Source of the DNA: an uncultured Acidobacteriota bacterium
GTDB taxonomy: Bacteria; Acidobacteriota; UBA6911; CAINFC01
DNA length: 64,000 nt
Direction: 5' to 3'
Assembly: GCA_903847975.1 (NCBI GenBank)
Contig: CAINFC010000079.1
Span: forward strand, 75,847 to 139,846
Made by a program: the position numbers. Positions within the stretch are counted from its first letter, which is position 1; each line of letters starts with the position of its first letter. Of this stretch, positions 21,001 to 30,000 are shown one piece after another.

Positions 21001-24000
21001 GCCCCGCTTCAGCTTCGCCTGGGACGTTTTCGGTACCGGCAAACTGGCGGTCCGTGCCGGAGTCGGCGTGTTCCACGGGGTGACCGGAATCGCCTACTCC
21101 GGATGGTACCTGGGGGCCCGCGCGCCGCTCATCCAGTCGACATCGATCTCCAACGGCTTTGCCGACAACCCGGCCAGCGGCGTTCCCAGCACCACGATCT
21201 ACCCGATCGACGCCGGCGCGCTGCCGTCCGAATACAAGATTCCCACCATGTACAACTACACTTTGGGCATTCAGACCATTCTCCCGTACGCCACCCAGCT
21301 GGACGTCAGCTATGTGGGCAATACCGGCCGGCACCTTTCTCTGAGCCGCAACCTGAACTACATCACTCCCGAGGTCCAGGCCGCCCACCAGGGAGTCGAC
21401 CTGCGCCCCTTTGCGCCCTATCCCGGACTGGGCGGGCTCAATATGGTGGAGCCCTCGGCTACCTCCAGCTACAACGCCATGCAGCTGGCGGCCCGGAGGC
21501 GCACCGGGCAGATCACCTACAGCGTTTCCTACACCCTGGGCAAGATTATGGGCTACGGAAATGAGGGTGTTGCCGGCGGGATGCAGAATCCCAACAACTG
21601 GCGGCTGGACCGATCGGAACTGGAAGAAAGCCGCCGGCACTATGCCATCATCATGCACACCTGGGAGTTGCCGTGGTTTAAAACCCAGCAGGGGCTGCTG
21701 GGCAGAATCCTGGGTGGCTGGTCGATCACCGGGGTTTGGACTCTCAACACCGGGCGGCTCTATTCGCCCGGGCTGACCGCTGTGGCCCGGGGGGTTGCCA
21801 GCCGTCCGGACGTGGTGGGAGACTGGGAGCTGCCCAAAAGCGAGCGCACCATTTTCCGATTCTTCAACACCGCGGCATTTGCCCGGCCGAAGGACTGGAC
21901 GTTCGGCAACGCGGGAAAGTGGATCGTTCGCGGACCGGGCACCATCGACCTGAGCGCGTTTGCCCTCAAGGACATCAAGGTGTGGGAAAGAATCAAGCTG
22001 CAGGCGCGGGTCGAGGCCTTCAATGCTCCGAACCACATGAACCTGCAGGACATCAACACCACCCTGGGGAATGCGTCCTTCGGCCAGGTAAGCGGCGTAG
22101 GTGCGCCGCGCTACATCCAGCTCGGCATGAAGATGCTCTGGTAAATCTTCCCGGCATCCTTTCGCAACTGTCAAGCCACAAGGCCGGCCCGGGCACGAAA
22201 ACCCGGGCCGGCCTTTTTCTTGATAACCCGGCAAAAAGTCGAAATTCATTTTATGTTCTGCGGTCCCTTACGGGACTGGCGTGTGTACTGCACGGGACGA
22301 AATAGCGGAGATCATACCGTTGTACTACGGCCTTGCCTTGTCAGGCCCTGCGTTTGCCGGCACACGGCTGTAATTCCGAGGCATAAGTCCCGTCAGGGAC
22401 GACAAGATTATGGCCCGGCAATTTATTGCCGGGTTGGCTCCAGCGCGGGGTAAGACCCATCGGGACGGTAGAACCGGACGAAAAAACGGGTTTTTTTCGA
22501 AGCCATCCTTCCTGACAAACCGGTAAAAAGTCCCATATCTGGAGATTTCCGTTGGGGAAAGCACCTGAAAGGGCTTGGCAACACAGCCCGGGGTTGGCGC
22601 GCTTCGCGCCTACCCCGGGTAGGGACACCCTCTGGCGACAACCCGGAAAGGGTTGCGCAAAATCCGTAATGACCGTTGTTTGCGCAGCCCTTTCCGGGCA
22701 GTATTTTAAACAAAACCGCCTACCCGGGGTAGCGCCTGTGCGGCGCAACCCCGGGCTGTGATCCGGAACCCCTTGCGGGGTTCCAGACCTTTTACCGCTT
22801 CCTCGTTTTTCACTCTTGTCCAAAATAATTAAATGCCAAACGCGCTTTCCAGCACCAGCAGATGTTTGTCCCAGACAATATTCCATGAGCCTGGTTGCAG
22901 GAAAAACAGGGTTGTTTTAAGCGGGGGGCGCCGGTAGAATATAGCCATGTCGGAAAAGCCGATAAAGCAATATTCTATAGAACCGTTCACCGGCCTGCCG
23001 CAGGAGGCGGCCGCCGCGCTCCTGCGTCGCGGAATGGAACTGGAGTTTCCCGAAGGAGAGTGGATTTACCGGCAGGGCGCAAATGACGAAGAAATCTACC
23101 TGCTGGTTTCCGGAAGCGTGGAAGGAATCCTGCTATCCGAATCGGGCGTTCCGACCACCGTTTTCAATTGGGAGTCAGGGGATCTCTTCGGGGAAGAATG
23201 CCTTTTCGTGGCCGGGGCAAGACGGGAATCGGCCCGGACGACGGCCCCTTCGAAGTTGTTTCGGATCGGCCGGCAGGACTTCGAGGAGGCCCAGACCGAA
23301 TTTCCGGCTCTGTCGGCTTTTCTCTCACGGGCGCTCTTCCAGCACATTTCCCGTATCCACGAGCATCTCCATCACTCTGCCGAAATGGAACAGGCTTACC
23401 TGAAGTTCCTTTCCGCGCACGGCGGGGGAAACCACTGGCGGCCCCTGGGGAGGAGCGAATCGCTGAGAAGGGTTCGGGAAGCGGCGGAAGCGGCCGGAGG
23501 GAACCGGAATCCCGTTCTCCTGGTGGGGCCCGCCGGAACCGAGAAGCAGGACGTGGCCCGAAGCATCCATGCCGGCGGGGCCCGTCCCAACGCCCCCTTT
23601 CTGGTCATGGACGCCAAGACGGTCGGTCTGGAGCTGATCCTTGGCACCTCCGGCGAGGATGTCGGGGAAATGGCCCGGGAACTGGCTCAGGACCTGGCAC
23701 TTTTCGGATGCCGGATCGGCATCCCCACGGCCGCGGATGTGGATCGCATGGGATACCTGCGGGTAGGGTCCGGGGGGACGGTGCTCATTGAAAATGTGGA
23801 GTGCTTATCCGTGGTGGTCCAGGAGCGGCTTTACAATTTTCTTCGGACCGGCAGCCTCCTGCCTATGGGGGCTGATTTTCCTATCCGTTCCAACGCCCGC
23901 ATCATGGTTTCTACCACCGTGGATCTGGCGGCCTGGGCCGAGGCCGGCAAGTTTCACCCGGGGCTGCTTTCCTGCTTTCAGAAGCCTTACCTTCAGTTGC

Positions 24001-27000: not shown

Positions 27001-30000
27001 GGCCAGGTTGGCATAGCGGACGATTCCCTCTTCGTCCAGGAGAAGCACGAGGTCGGGAGACAACTCCACCAGTCGGCGATAGTGCTCTTCCTGCCCGGTG
27101 GAAGGCCTCTGCTCCAGGCTTTCTTCTGCCCCCGAACAGGGAGAGGTAGGGGAGGGCGCGGAGGTTGGATTAGTTTCCGGGATTCCCTCAGAAGAGGGCA
27201 TGGCGGCAGGAACTGAATGAGAAGGCATCTGCACTCTCCGATCCGATGTTTGGATGATGATTTTTTTAAAGGGTCAAATCATACCCGAGATCGGGGCAGG
27301 ATGCATCGTCTTTTTAGAGTTTTGTTTGGCGGTGATTAGGTTAATCCATTTTAATAAGTGACTAGGGTTAAGTCCTTGTCCGATATAAGGAAAAATTCTT
27401 TTTCATGAACCAGTGGTTACAAAAAACCCATTATGAGCTATAATAAAAGCAATAATTTATTAATTCAACAAATCAATGGTAGTAAAAATATTGAAACCTT
27501 AGTAGGGGTATTCGGAAAGAACATGGAATGATCAAAGCGAAAAACGCCCGGGTTTCCATGAGCCTGCCGGTTGGTCTGGCAGGTATGCTAATGAGCCTCT
27601 TTCTGTGCAGCTTTGCGAAGGGGGCCACCGTTACGCTGGCCTGGGATCCTCCCGCCAGTCCGGGCGTGGTCGGGTACAAACTGTATATCGGGACCAGCAG
27701 CCGCAATTACACCCGTATTTCATCCGTCGGGAGCCGTCTGAGCTGCCGAGTTTCCGGGCTATCCAAGGACCCCTATTATTTTGCCGTTACGGCTCTTGAC
27801 GCCGCCGGACGGGAAAGTCCTTTTTCGGAGGAGGTTTCCACCGAAATTTTTGCCAGCGGAACTTCAGCCGATCCCATCATCCCCGTGATTACGGTTTCCG
27901 ACCCGGACGATGCCACGCAGACATTCGTGGTGGTCACCACAACCGATCCTTCCGCATCCGCTTCCAAGGGCCCTCCGCAATCGGCTTCCCAGTTTCGCTA
28001 TTATTTCCCGCTTTTTTATTCTTCAGAAGCAGGTTTCGAAACCGGTCCGTGACACACCATTTTAAAATATGGAGGGGCCGGTCGGGATGGAGCGGCGGGA
28101 AGCCCCCTCTTTTGTAACGAAAAAAGTACCAGGAAAGGAGTGCAGGGCATGCGCAAATCCGAGAGAGAGATCGGTGATCGTACCGAGATGGATGCCATTA
28201 TCCGGGCGAGTATGGTGTGCCGCCTGGGACTCATGGACGAAAATGAGCCTTACATTGTTCCGCTCAGCTTCGGGTACGACGGCAACGCTCTCTATTTCCA
28301 TTCAGCCCCGGCGGGGAGAAAAATCGAGCTATTGGCCCGCAGGAATCGGGTTTGCTTCGAATTCGACAAGGTGGAAGGGCTGATTGCCGCCGAGGAGGCC
28401 TGTCGCTGGGGTGTCCGCTACCGCAGCGTGATGGGAACCGGGAGAGCCTTTCTCCTGGAGGACCTGGAGGAAAAACGTCACGCCCTGGCCCTGATCATGA
28501 GGCAGTATTCCCCTGGAACCTTCACCTTCCCGGAGGAATCGGTGCGAAAAACCGCCGTCATCAAGGTGGTTATCGAGACAATTTCCGGAAAGCAGACAGC
28601 CCGCACCTGAAGGGCCACCGCACCGGCATCCGGAATGCGAAGGGGGCATTTCTCCCCCCCCCCTTTGTCATACACTGGCTTGGTTATAGTTCCTTTTAGC
28701 TATTGCTATCTTCCTTATTCGAAGGATCGGCTGACTACGGCTTCAATTCTACTGATCAATCTCCAATAGCGGGTCCTCGACCTTATGGTCGGTCCCATCC
28801 TGTTTTTTTTCCACAATATCGTATTCAAATAATCCCGCAACGCCATTTTTCCGTCTGCCGGTCAGCGAATTTGTTTGGCCGTTGTAAAGGATCAGCTGCG
28901 GTGGATTCAGCACTACTGGAGGAGGATTGCAAGGTCTATTTGTACTTAAGTCTACAAAATTGTCGACCCGGATCCTGACCGGTTGTGCGTTTTGCTGATT
29001 GGATTGAAAAGTGAATATCCACTTAACTTCATCCTCATCATTTTTCATACACAATTTAGGTGTCGGTGTTTCGACCTTGTGATTCGGGTGTGTAGAACCT
29101 GGGTGCGTATCATCGTCGATGATTTGAACGTGGGCAATCTTTACATCCTCCTTCATTGGAACCTCCTGATAAAAGATGAGATTAATTATTGAACAATTCT
29201 CGGTATCGGGGGAATCGTTTCAGCGGAGCGAAATCTTCATTGTCTTCGATCTCTTTCCGGCTAATTCCATATTTGAGCGCTTGCTCCAGTTCGGAGATAC
29301 CTTTTTCCGGGTCCCCTGCCATAACGTGGATGGCTGCTTTGGAATAGAGAATATCCGGATGACGAGGAGAAATTGCCAAGGCCTGTTCGGCATGATTTAT
29401 GGCTTCTTTGGGTCTGCCTATTCTGGCTTCACAGTGGGCCATGACGATCATATCATTGGCACGGCTGGGATCGATTCGCAGCGTGTCCCGGGCTAACTCG
29501 ATGGCTCGTATGTAGTGAGCTTCTGCTTCCTCCCGCCTGCCAAGGTGCCGGTAGGCATCGCCGAGATTCATAAGGGTAATGCAGGCTTCACGGATTTGCA
29601 GAGCCCGCGAGTACATCGCAACGGCTTCCGGATATTTTTGCTGCCGGTAGTAGATGGTGCCAAGGTTGGAGAAGGCCGCCGGGCTGCTGCTGGTGCCCAG
29701 CTGAATGGCTCGCCGGTAGTTTGTCGCTGCCTGATCCAGGTCGCCGGTTTTGTGATAGGCGGTTCCCAGGTTCTGATAGCCCCAGGATAGATCCGGCTGC
29801 AGTTCCGTCAGCCGCTTCAGGACCGAAATCGATTCCGCATAACGGCCCGATTTCAGCAGAGCCAGGCCCAGCGCCTGATAGTTGCGCCAGAAGTTGGGAC
29901 GCAATTCGATGGCTTTGCGGTATTCGCGGAAGGACTCCTCCATCAGGGCTTTCTTTTCCAGGGCCTGTCCCAGCATGCGATGGGCATGGTCGTTGTTGGG

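Follow-up and report, generated by a model that had tools for sequence, protein, structure and literature searches.

A conserved pairing of a PAS-bearing ImcH-type cytochrome with a NapH-like membrane fusion protein in an uncultured Acidobacteriota bacterium: a candidate membrane redox module

Do two neighbouring genes, each of which joins a sensor-type domain to a membrane redox domain, belong to one system and, if so, what might that system do? The question is raised by a convergent gene pair at positions 22947-27234 of a 64,000-nucleotide (nt) stretch of DNA (contig CAINFC010000079.1, positions 75,847-139,846, of assembly GCA_903847975.1; the whole stretch is hereafter called the window) from an uncultured Acidobacteriota bacterium. 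A reading made earlier from the sequence alone (the original prediction) had described the plus-strand gene (gene 1) as a fusion of a cyclic-nucleotide-binding (cNMP) domain, a sigma54-activator-type AAA+ domain and a NapH-like membrane iron-sulfur (Fe-S) domain, had described the minus-strand gene (gene 2) as a PAS sensor joined to a six-heme NapC/NirT-like cytochrome, and had taken the two for a functional unit. Both open reading frames (ORFs) were confirmed in the sequence where it had placed them, with 3' ends that overlap by 14 nt and stop codons, TAA for gene 1 and TGA for gene 2, that lie inside the overlap. The names gene 1 and gene 2 are also used below for the encoded proteins.

22947..25550, plus strand: gene 1, ORF of 867 amino acids (aa), cNMP-like / pseudo-AAA+ (sigma54-activator type) / NapH-like polyferredoxin fusion
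25537..27234, minus strand: gene 2, ORF of 565 aa counted from a GTG at 27234, PAS-fused ImcH-type hexaheme cytochrome c
25537..25550, no strand assigned: 14-nt convergent overlap of the 3' ends of genes 1 and 2, read from the sequence (TCATTTTCGGCTAA)

The adjacency of the two genes is conserved and co-inherited. This conserved pairing supports the idea of a functional unit, and the pair probably works together as an undescribed electron-transfer unit, which is possibly regulated. The fuller reading, in which the two proteins are partners in one membrane redox module and the N-terminal head of gene 1 has a regulatory or oligomerising role, stands in our judgement at about an even chance. No published account of a conserved coupling between genes of these two kinds was found in the literature searched.

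Absence of the pairing from every related genome had been set beforehand as the refuting observation for the original prediction, and the prediction withstood this test: in distantly related uncultured bacteria, the search found tandem pairs at two loci (L177 and L178) and pairs with a stand-alone membrane module at two more (L008 and L176). At L178, 15 nt separate the end of a gene for an 863-aa fusion (P0160; cNMP-AAA-lid-Fer4_5, 40% identity with gene 1) from a PAS-bearing ImcH gene downstream on the same strand, the product of which (P0032) is 46% identical to gene 2. At L177, the closest full-length relative of gene 1 (P0001, 42% identity) is followed after 31 nt, also on the same strand, by a PAS-bearing ImcH gene (48%), and the members of this pair have consecutive accessions in a second NCBI assembly. 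A frameshift near position 340 separates the cNMP part of the L177 fusion (L177:55-420) from the rest, and the domain goes on in the next frame; the cause is an assembly error in the metagenome-assembled genome or else a recent pseudogenisation of the head. At L008, a PAS-bearing ImcH gene (44%) is divergent from a gene for a 618-aa stand-alone membrane module (34% identity over gene 1 residues 445-700, E = 6e-47). The cytochrome and the stand-alone module of L176 are 77 and 70% identical, respectively, to their L008 counterparts, and there the module lies upstream in tandem; thus, the orientation has changed and the adjacency has been kept. Both stand-alone modules (L008:5455-6600, minus strand; L176:2-1219) carry a C-terminal extension of approximately 360 aa, composed of transmembrane (TM) helices and a soluble tail of approximately 150 aa, which shows a weak match to the PEP-utilisers mobile domain alone and stands in for the missing N-terminal head.

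Counted by lineage, the module adjoins the cytochrome gene in 5 of 8 lineages with a PAS-bearing ImcH and at none of 80 non-PAS ImcH control loci (Fisher p = 1.4e-6); when L008 and L176 are merged, the counts become 4/7 and 0/80 (Fisher p = 1.6e-5). A further lineage (P0029, contig JGI 3300075153), with a 69% identical cytochrome and a truncated convergent neighbour of 407 aa, stands outside the 5/8 count. A scan of metagenomes with an alignment of the PAS-bearing cytochromes yielded non-PAS relatives only, and these served as the negative control. In a tree of 72 family members, the fusions of the window, L177 and L178 group together as a clade (198/200 bootstraps), and the identities of module and cytochrome rank alike, those of L177 and L178 being mutually closer than either is to the window for both proteins. 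The L008 cytochrome is near that of L177 (64%), and the L008 module is distant (approximately 31%) and has no cNMP/AAA+ head. The association thus seems to lie with the membrane core of the module and with ImcH in its PAS-bearing form, and not with the head.

The identity of gene 2 can be read from its domain matches and motifs, which comprise the following features.

26737..27087, minus strand: cytoplasmic PAS domain, aa 50-166 (2e-12; PF13426, PF00989 and PF08448), kept in 14 relatives
26644..26700, minus strand: single TM anchor, aa 179-197, after the basic stretch RRKEAEQARKKMRRRLL (hydropathy, match to NrfH 2j7a, comparison with three-TM non-PAS relatives)
25600..26637, minus strand: periplasmic heme domain, with CX3CH at aa 207-212 and CXXCH at 232, 281, 387, 505 and 525

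The predicted order of a PAS domain, one TM helix and a NapC/NirT-like region was borne out, the last of these being matched by the NapC/NirT N-terminal region PF03264 at residues 176-270 (1.4e-07). The NCBIfam model for NrfH (TIGR03153) also matches gene 2 (2.2e-12), and its sole solved relative is NrfH (2j7a; 5e-7, residues 179-284). Two parts of the original description need refinement. Six heme sites are indeed present, and all six motifs are invariant in the 14 PAS-bearing relatives, but one of them is CX3CH (CGKFCH, ten residues past the TM helix) and only the other five are CXXCH. Similarly, the likeness to NapC/NirT holds, but the name is too general because gene 2 belongs to a described family, ImcH (PMC6295460; bioRxiv 10.1101/2023.05.03.539133). 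ImcH proteins have three TM helices and an atypical CX3CH motif by the membrane domain, followed by CX2CH motifs that number 5-9 among homologs; the family is common in Acidobacteria, where 19 homologs have been recorded, and rare one-TM variants occur (PMC6295460). ImcH oxidises menaquinol and reduces periplasmic cytochromes, and E127, H137, K173, Q179 and Y188 have been proposed as residues of its menaquinol site (bioRxiv 10.1101/2023.05.03.539133).

The corresponding predicted menaquinol-site residues of gene 2 are E200, H210, K246, Q252 and Y261 (563-aa numbering), its E, K, Q and Y lying at -10, +36, +42 and +51 from the CX3CH histidine, which are the ImcH offsets as judged by spacing and not by alignment with GSU3259. 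The E, K and Q are invariant in 14/14 PAS-bearing forms, and the K and Q are found in 65/66 non-PAS forms. Because the CX3CH motif, the CXXCH series and the quinol-site offsets all match published ImcH, gene 2 is placed in this family; on these motifs, it is a PAS-fused, one-TM, six-heme member with its predicted quinol site intact and represents a novel architecture within a family already described. Over 800 relatives of gene 2 lack the PAS domain; these non-PAS proteins are approximately 500 aa long, with two extra N-terminal TM helices at the position of the PAS domain and one or two extra C-terminal hemes. Compared with ImcH of Geobacter sulfurreducens (GSU3259), gene 2 shares the NapC/NirT/NrfH-like first half and the CX3CH motif after the anchor followed by CX2CH motifs (five in gene 2, 5-9 in the family and six in Geobacter), whereas it has one TM helix instead of the typical three, a cytoplasmic PAS domain in place of the region of TM helices 1 and 2 (TMH1-2), and six hemes instead of seven, the C-terminal heme being absent. 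The single anchor corresponds to TMH3 of ImcH and to the single helix of NrfH. No description of a PAS-fused ImcH was found in the literature searched. The public gene call (P0028, 100% identical) starts at an ATG at 27228, two codons after the GTG at 27234, and a GGAG lies 8 nt upstream of this ATG; the ATG start (563 aa) is more likely than the GTG start (565 aa).

Non-PAS ImcH-like genes have neighbours of another kind. In the soil and sediment metagenomes from which they came (L091-L170), the usual neighbour encodes a protein of approximately 650 aa in which a nine-heme cytochrome c is fused to a cytochrome b. This CbcL-like gene lies just upstream on the same strand at 46 non-PAS loci (e.g. 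L135:5627-7576 with L135:8001-9059), whereas in the window the Fe-S membrane module is found in its place. CbcL of Geobacter joins a nine-heme cytochrome c to a dihaem cytochrome b, and ImcH and CbcL have been described there as separate quinol oxidases for different potentials. A CbcL-like gene also lies beside one PAS-bearing form: at L089, a 61%-identical PAS-bearing ImcH gene is convergent with a gene for a 740-aa CbcL-like multiheme/cytochrome b protein (L089:9273-11495). The adjacency of CbcL-like genes indicates that ImcH-type cytochromes commonly pair with a second membrane redox protein, and the fixed ImcH-CbcL gene pair may merit separate attention. Two conserved genes lie 5' of the PAS-bearing ImcH gene at L171, neither with a Pfam match: one encodes a 260-aa multi-pass membrane protein with a Cys-rich, zinc-ribbon-like tail (CAICG...CPECG; L171:3345-4127), and the other a secreted protein of 528 aa (L171:4150-5736).

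Gene 1 consists of a cytoplasmic head, a four-TM module, an Fe-S domain and an additional set of TM helices.

23040..23288, plus strand: cNMP-binding-like beta-barrel, aa 32-114 (PF00027, 1e-13; CRP-type PDB matches, 1e-7)
23448..24218, plus strand: sigma54-activator-type AAA+ core (aa 168-340) and lid (aa 356-424) (PF00158, PF25601)
24312..24758, plus strand: NapH-like membrane module, TM1-TM4 (PF12801 (Fer4_5) twice, 3.6e-08; motifs, hydropathy and AlphaFold helices)
24762..24962, plus strand: cytoplasmic Fe-S domain (Cys positions, invariant alignment columns and Fer4 family matches)
25002..25544, plus strand: five further TM helices, TM5-TM9, kept only among closer relatives

Each of the three domain assignments made for gene 1 (cNMP, sigma54-type AAA+ and NapH-like) was upheld by Pfam and NCBIfam matches. 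PF00027 scores 51.5 bits against a gathering threshold of 27.5, and in Pfam the AAA+ core and lid match Sigma54_activat (PF00158, E = 8.8e-20) and AAA_lid_14 (PF25601, E = 1.9e-12). TM1-TM4 are predicted by hydropathy and AlphaFold at residues 456-475, 484-504, 533-556 and 563-583, both ends of this four-helix unit being placed in the cytoplasm, with WC509AIC512P (CX2CP) after TM2 and WC590RYVC594P (CX3CP) after TM4. The Fe-S domain then provides C618-x3-C622-x4-C627...C637-P and C652-x2-C655-x2-C658-x3-C662-P, the latter (652-662) being a canonical Fer4-type CxxCxxCxxxCP motif. In family alignments, these eight cysteines and those of the CX2CP and CX3CP motifs are invariant or nearly so, and the eight are consistent with two [4Fe-4S] clusters. 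The full-length AlphaFold model (predicted local distance difference test (pLDDT) 90.3, predicted template modelling score (pTM) 0.76; membrane half, pLDDT 86.2, pTM 0.87) comprises the cNMP beta-barrel, a long helix (121-159), the AAA+ core and lid, and nine TM helices; it places the Fe-S domain in the cytoplasm, after TM4 and before TM5, and contains no periplasmic domain, the external loops being short. The absence of a DNA-binding helix-turn-helix (HTH), as proposed originally, agrees with Pfam, in which no HTH family (PF02954 included) matches gene 1, and with the model, in which a short linker leads from the lid to TM1. Based on hydropathy, the AlphaFold models (pLDDT 86-90) and basic stretches before TM helices, the sensor-like domains and Fe-S motifs are predicted to be cytoplasmic and the hemes of gene 2 periplasmic.

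The head of gene 1 had been named a pseudo-bEBP, after the bacterial enhancer-binding proteins (bEBPs) that activate sigma54, and the name fits. Its Walker A reads GPAGTEKQ, its Walker B VLIENV, and GIPTAA stands in place of GAFTGA; the Arg fingers (FHPGLLSCF) and the sensor II Arg (WPGNTEEL) are lost. A motif census of 118 fusion-family members aligned with PspF and genuine bEBPs gave the same picture throughout. The Walker B DE is present in 0/118 members (EN, KN, RH or others occur instead), GAFTGA in 0/118 (vs 8/8 control bEBPs shown), and both arginine-finger positions are substituted. The sensor II Arg is kept in 14/118, with WPGNxEEL in place of WPGNIREL, and the Walker A Lys in 97/118, with Gly-Lys in 67/118. 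All control bEBPs in the same alignment show the canonical motifs. None of the members examined has retained the residues that ATP hydrolysis or contact with sigma54 would require. The spacing from the lid to the first Cys motif is constant in the family (111-113 residues). By sequence, the AAA+ domain matches ZraR, NtrC1 and PspF in PDB (approximately 1e-23), and Foldseek comparison with bEBP structures gave TM-scores of 0.85-0.93 at a root-mean-square deviation of approximately 2 Å. Judged from these motifs, the sigma54-type AAA+ fold is retained but catalytically dead throughout the fusion family. Gene 1 thus shares the AAA+ core and lid fold of bEBPs such as PspF, NtrC1, ZraR and FlrC but differs from them, as does its whole family, in the lost motifs, the mostly lost sensor II Arg, the missing HTH and the membrane anchorage. 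Sigma54-type AAA+ domains without sigma54 coupling occur in FleQ, VpsR and TyrR, where they function in ligand binding or oligomerisation; FleQ and VpsR are among the PDB matches of the gene 1 domain, but these proteins are soluble DNA-binding transcription factors.

The pocket of the cNMP-like barrel also looks degenerate in the paired lineage. Many fusion-family members have a canonical cNMP cassette (family consensus FGEMALLTGEP-RSA), and the strict pattern fits 25/71 members. The phosphate-binding cassette reads FGEECLFVAGA-RRESA in gene 1 and GEP-HVASA in its closest paired relative (P0160). Because the cassette is non-canonical in both the window copy and this relative, binding of a cyclic nucleotide is doubtful in the paired sub-lineage.

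The fusion belongs to a large family and is not peculiar to Acidobacteria. An exhaustive HMMER search of 1.84 billion representatives found 352 clusters (50% identity) at E<=1e-30, and the best 150 clusters, all with E<1e-57, are mostly 800-950 aa long, with alignments that run from the cNMP domain into the membrane part. When species-representative genomes were scanned with an alignment of the membrane module, at least 497 matches were confirmed, the best 80 loci of which comprise 59 AAA+/module fusions and 21 stand-alone modules. The hosts include Desulfobulbales, Desulfocapsaceae, Desulfobacterales, Thermodesulfovibrio and other Nitrospirota, Scalindua, Brocadiaceae, NC10, Holophagae and other Acidobacteriota, Chloroflexota and Firmicutes. 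Culturable carriers of a fusion gene are found among them, such as Desulfosediminicola flagellatus (L044), Desulforhopalus (L036) and Desulfurivibrio (L030). An apparent rarity of the fusion (six full-length relatives in a word-indexed search) was discarded as a sensitivity artefact in view of the HMMER and genome scans. The window fusion itself (22947-25547, P0309) is in the collection and was missed by the word-indexed search because a 173-aa fragment (P0192) stands for its 90% cluster. Gene 1 combines known parts (a CRP-type barrel, the bEBP AAA+ fold and a NapH-type module) in an arrangement that forms a large, publicly mislabelled family, and no description of the fusion was found in the literature searched.

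Multiheme neighbours are rare at the 80 best fusion/module loci. A neighbour apparently shared by 18 fusion loci was rejected as a product of single-linkage clustering through generic PAS domains, and other recurrent neighbours (hisD, rsmG, prs, hemE and leuB) were set aside as housekeeping synteny in Desulfocapsaceae. Paralogous fusions lie side by side, in tandem or convergent, at L015 (1174-3960 and 6020-8809) and L020 (approximately 2583-5027 and 6711-9284), and a paralogue pair or a fusion convergent with a stand-alone module is found at L061 (4312-6330 and 9033-10634, the latter on the minus strand) and L014 (6339-9272 and 9399-11342, the latter on the minus strand). Such adjacent paralogues hint at hetero-oligomers of pseudo-AAA+/membrane proteins. 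At L003 (5652-12183), which is another redox context for the family, a fusion homolog (P0003) lies between divergent genes for the alpha and beta subunits of electron transfer flavoprotein (ETF) and genes for a mono-heme cytochrome c and an ApbE flavin transferase. Other fusions occur among distant relatives of the module, namely with Caa3_CtaG (P0152) and with a cupredoxin/COX2 domain (P0153, named 'polyferredoxin/plastocyanin'), and an Acidobacteriota protein of 1188 aa (P0006) has an AIM24 domain N-terminal to its cNMP-AAA part.

How the two proteins might work as partners in one membrane redox module can be outlined as follows. Gene 2 would act as a menaquinol:cytochrome c oxidoreductase of the ImcH type, in which electrons from menaquinol would enter at heme 1 outside the TM anchor and pass along the six periplasmic hemes to a periplasmic acceptor. 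Gene 1 would provide a NapH-type, quinone-interacting four-helix bundle, and its two putative cytoplasmic [4Fe-4S]-type clusters would link this quinone site to the redox state of the cytoplasm or to a donor or acceptor there. The PAS domain and TM anchor of gene 2 may dock on the module of gene 1, which would replace the missing TMH1-2, and the cytoplasmic Fe-S clusters, the quinone site and the periplasmic heme chain could thereby be connected. The cNMP-like and dead AAA+ head would regulate or oligomerise the assembly and would not activate transcription. The sequences and models show the domain identities, the dead ATPase motifs, the predicted topology, the ImcH quinol-site signature and the co-inherited adjacency; the contact between the two proteins, quinone binding by gene 1, the direction of electron flow and any control by a ligand are inferred. 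The four-TM/CX3CP module of NapH, NosR and RdhC has been proposed to form a quinol-interacting or quinol-oxidising site, and its motifs are required for partner binding and activity (PMC5928378); an interaction with quinol has been proposed for NapH in particular (PMC5928378; PMC6195509), and NapC-type and NapGH-type modules act as alternative or cooperating quinol dehydrogenases (PMC6195509). Gene 1 resembles NapH in the four-TM module with two cytoplasmic-side Cys-x-Cys-Pro motifs followed by two Fe-S cysteine motifs, and both are encoded alongside a NapC/NirT-type membrane cytochrome. In E. coli, NapH and NapC reportedly interact (Brondijk et al. 2004). Gene 1 differs from NapH in its first motif (CX2CP), in its first Fe-S motif (Cx3Cx4C...CP), in its five extra TM helices, in its N-terminal cNMP-like and pseudo-AAA+ head, and in the absence of NapG, NapA and NapB. 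A four-TM and CX3CP membrane module is also shared by NosR, NirI and RdhC (PceC), which, unlike gene 1, have a periplasmic FMN (flavin mononucleotide)-binding domain and no cytoplasmic sensor-type head; these proteins serve a partner redox enzyme (PMC5928378).

Several observations weigh against a partnership of this kind. No periplasmic Fe-S partner equivalent to NapG is present, which leaves no evident direct route for electrons from the clusters in the cytoplasm to the hemes, and the role of NapGH is itself debated (PMC6195509). The first Cys motif is CX2CP and not CX3CP throughout the family, and the NapH-specific models score far below their cutoffs on gene 1 (NapH/MauN TIGR02163, 3.6e-11 and 43 bits vs 213; PRK09477, 37.5 bits vs 234). 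The cNMP pocket of gene 1 is non-canonical, and the partnership of the PAS-bearing cytochrome with a headless module in L008 and L176 indicates that the head is not needed for the association. The signal gating suggested in the original prediction gained no support. In the window, the two genes are convergent and thus not co-transcribed. The module is absent next to the PAS-bearing ImcH gene in three lineages (L089, L171/L172 and L175). Viewed from the fusion, no relative of gene 2 was found within 8 kb at any of the 80 best species-representative loci (59 fusions included), and neither neighbour clustering nor Pfam analysis of 77 immediate neighbours revealed a conserved neighbour of the fusion genes. 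Since most fusions have no ImcH neighbour, the fusion must have a function of its own.

Among the other explanations, a signalling device is possible but less likely. The fusion would sense the redox state of the quinone pool or the cytoplasm (and possibly a nucleotide) and relay it to PAS-bearing partners, with the dead AAA+ ring as a conformational relay; the output would lie in the other domain of the partner, namely the ImcH cytochrome here and a LuxR-type HTH or a histidine kinase elsewhere. Such partners are encoded beside several fusions. A PAS-LuxR (GerE) gene lies 7 nt downstream of the fusion in L037 (2815-3774) and another lies downstream in L015 (4072-5025), their products being 32% identical over 91% of the length. 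Hybrids composed of three PAS domains, HisKA, HATPase and REC are encoded convergently with fusions in L021 (9302-11665, minus strand) and L023 (7464-9818, minus strand), and the L023 gene overlaps the 3' end of its fusion by 4 nt in a geometry like that of the window. Each type of PAS neighbour occurs in at least two lineages, the ImcH association is confined to PAS-bearing forms, and NosR, NirI and RdhC were once mistaken for transcription regulators (PMC5928378). However, PAS domains are found in 4/77 immediate neighbours of fusions vs 2/148 distant genes, a difference that is not significant (p = 0.18), and the modules paired with PAS-bearing ImcH in L008 and L176 carry neither an AAA+ nor a cNMP head. 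Furthermore, Pfam and NCBIfam revealed no classical output domain (kinase, HTH, GGDEF or MCP) on gene 1 or gene 2, and for this reason control of a redox enzyme by sensor-type domains is ranked above redox domains that feed a signalling output. An idea that draws on both, and which we regard as possible but doubtful, is that the fusion sub-lineage complexed with PAS-bearing ImcH is a post-translational switch on the exit of respiratory electrons. Either a shared quinone site would join the cytoplasmic Fe-S clusters to the periplasmic hemes as a regulated transmembrane conduit, or PAS domains would hand the redox state on to outputs that can be exchanged for one another (cytochrome, LuxR-type HTH or histidine kinase).

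Gene 1 may instead be a maturation or maintenance factor that supplies reducing power for the assembly or repair of the cytochrome or another enzyme, as modelled by NosR for NosZ, NapGH/NapF for NapA and CcoG for the cbb3 oxidase. We consider this unlikely. NapH, NosR, CcoG and RdhC have repeatedly been tied to the activation or maturation of a partner (PMC5928378, PMC6195509), and the Caa3_CtaG and cupredoxin/COX2 fusions of distant module relatives, as well as the ApbE flavin transferase and small cytochrome c beside the fusion homolog in L003, are compatible with such a role. Gene 1, however, has no periplasmic FMN-binding domain of the NosR/RdhC kind and only short external loops, no such neighbour accompanies ordinary ImcH genes (80 loci), and a maturation role offers no explanation of why only PAS-bearing ImcH would need gene 1. 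That the two genes are unrelated neighbours brought together by chance is very improbable and is contradicted by the conservation data: their convergent arrangement, with a likely transcription unit for each, and the many fusion genes without a cytochrome neighbour (the majority) would suit it, but four or five independent lineages have members of these two families side by side, at 40-50% protein identity and in three different orientations, two of the pairs are separated by gaps of 15-31 nt, the control count for non-PAS ImcH is 0/80 (p of about 1e-5 to 1e-6), and the paired fusions form a clade. The public annotation of gene 1 as a sigma54-dependent transcriptional activator is rejected on its motifs and retains hardly any probability. 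It has in its favour the significant PF00158 match, matches to many bEBP models in NCBIfam and the NCBI name, but the scores for these equivalogs are 5-10 fold under the curated cutoffs, GAFTGA, the Walker B DE, the Arg fingers and an HTH are all missing, nine TM helices anchor the protein, and the same holds for 118/118 family members. Because DE, GAFTGA and the HTH are absent and the lid-membrane spacing is fixed, the NCBI name 'sigma 54-interacting transcriptional regulator' is wrong in substance.

The surroundings of the pair in the window provide candidate regulatory signals and genes of other kinds.

27440..27468, minus strand: sigma70-like promoter candidate before gene 2, TTGAAT-17-TATTAT (consensus match only)
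22180..22215, plus strand: strong terminator-like hairpin of 14 pairs (12 G-C) followed by a T-run, 3' of the upstream outer-membrane-protein gene

The hairpin sits between gene 1 and the outer-membrane-protein gene, which encodes a CarboxypepD_reg/OMP (outer-membrane protein) beta-barrel protein of 1098 aa (18848-22144, plus strand). On the other side lie genes for an fn3-like lipoprotein or secreted protein of 174 aa (27528-28052, plus strand) and a Ser/Thr kinase with TPR repeats of 865 aa (29182-31779, minus strand). These three flanking genes are apparently unrelated to the pair and are not kept beside it elsewhere. The 64-kb window contains no nap genes and no c-type cytochrome other than gene 2, no further respiratory genes flank the pair, and Rfam revealed no riboswitch 5' of either gene. 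In the 800-bp gap 5' of gene 1 (22145-22946), on the opposite strand, the Acido-Lenti-1 small RNA motif (RF01687) has a full-length but sub-threshold match at 22386-22433 (minus strand; 26.5 bits vs a gathering threshold of 37; E = 0.006). Public assemblies call an ORF of 181 aa with no Pfam match (22341-22886, minus strand) over this match, and this ORF may be spurious.

Extracellular electron transfer, in the respiration of metals and electrodes, is entered through ImcH-type cytochromes; these are especially common in Acidobacteria, and we know of no account of how their activity is controlled. The combination of a PAS-bearing ImcH with a sensor-headed Fe-S protein is a testable candidate for the control or re-routing of the exit of electrons from the quinone pool. 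The fusion family itself is spread among anaerobes, including sulfate reducers, sulfur disproportionators, Nitrospirota, anammox bacteria, NC10, Holophagae, Chloroflexota and Firmicutes, and its mis-annotation as a sigma54 regulator inflates the counts of sigma54 activators in genome surveys. A membrane-anchored bEBP domain on a polyferredoxin, apparently dead throughout the family, will be surprising to specialists in respiration or sigma54, and it provides a clear example of a pseudo-enzyme domain held at a constant distance from a membrane redox module. If the fusion and the PAS-bearing ImcH do form a post-translational switch on respiratory electron exit, this would represent a new principle, in which the ATPase fold of a transcription activator has been re-used as a membrane-bound, non-catalytic regulator of electron transport.

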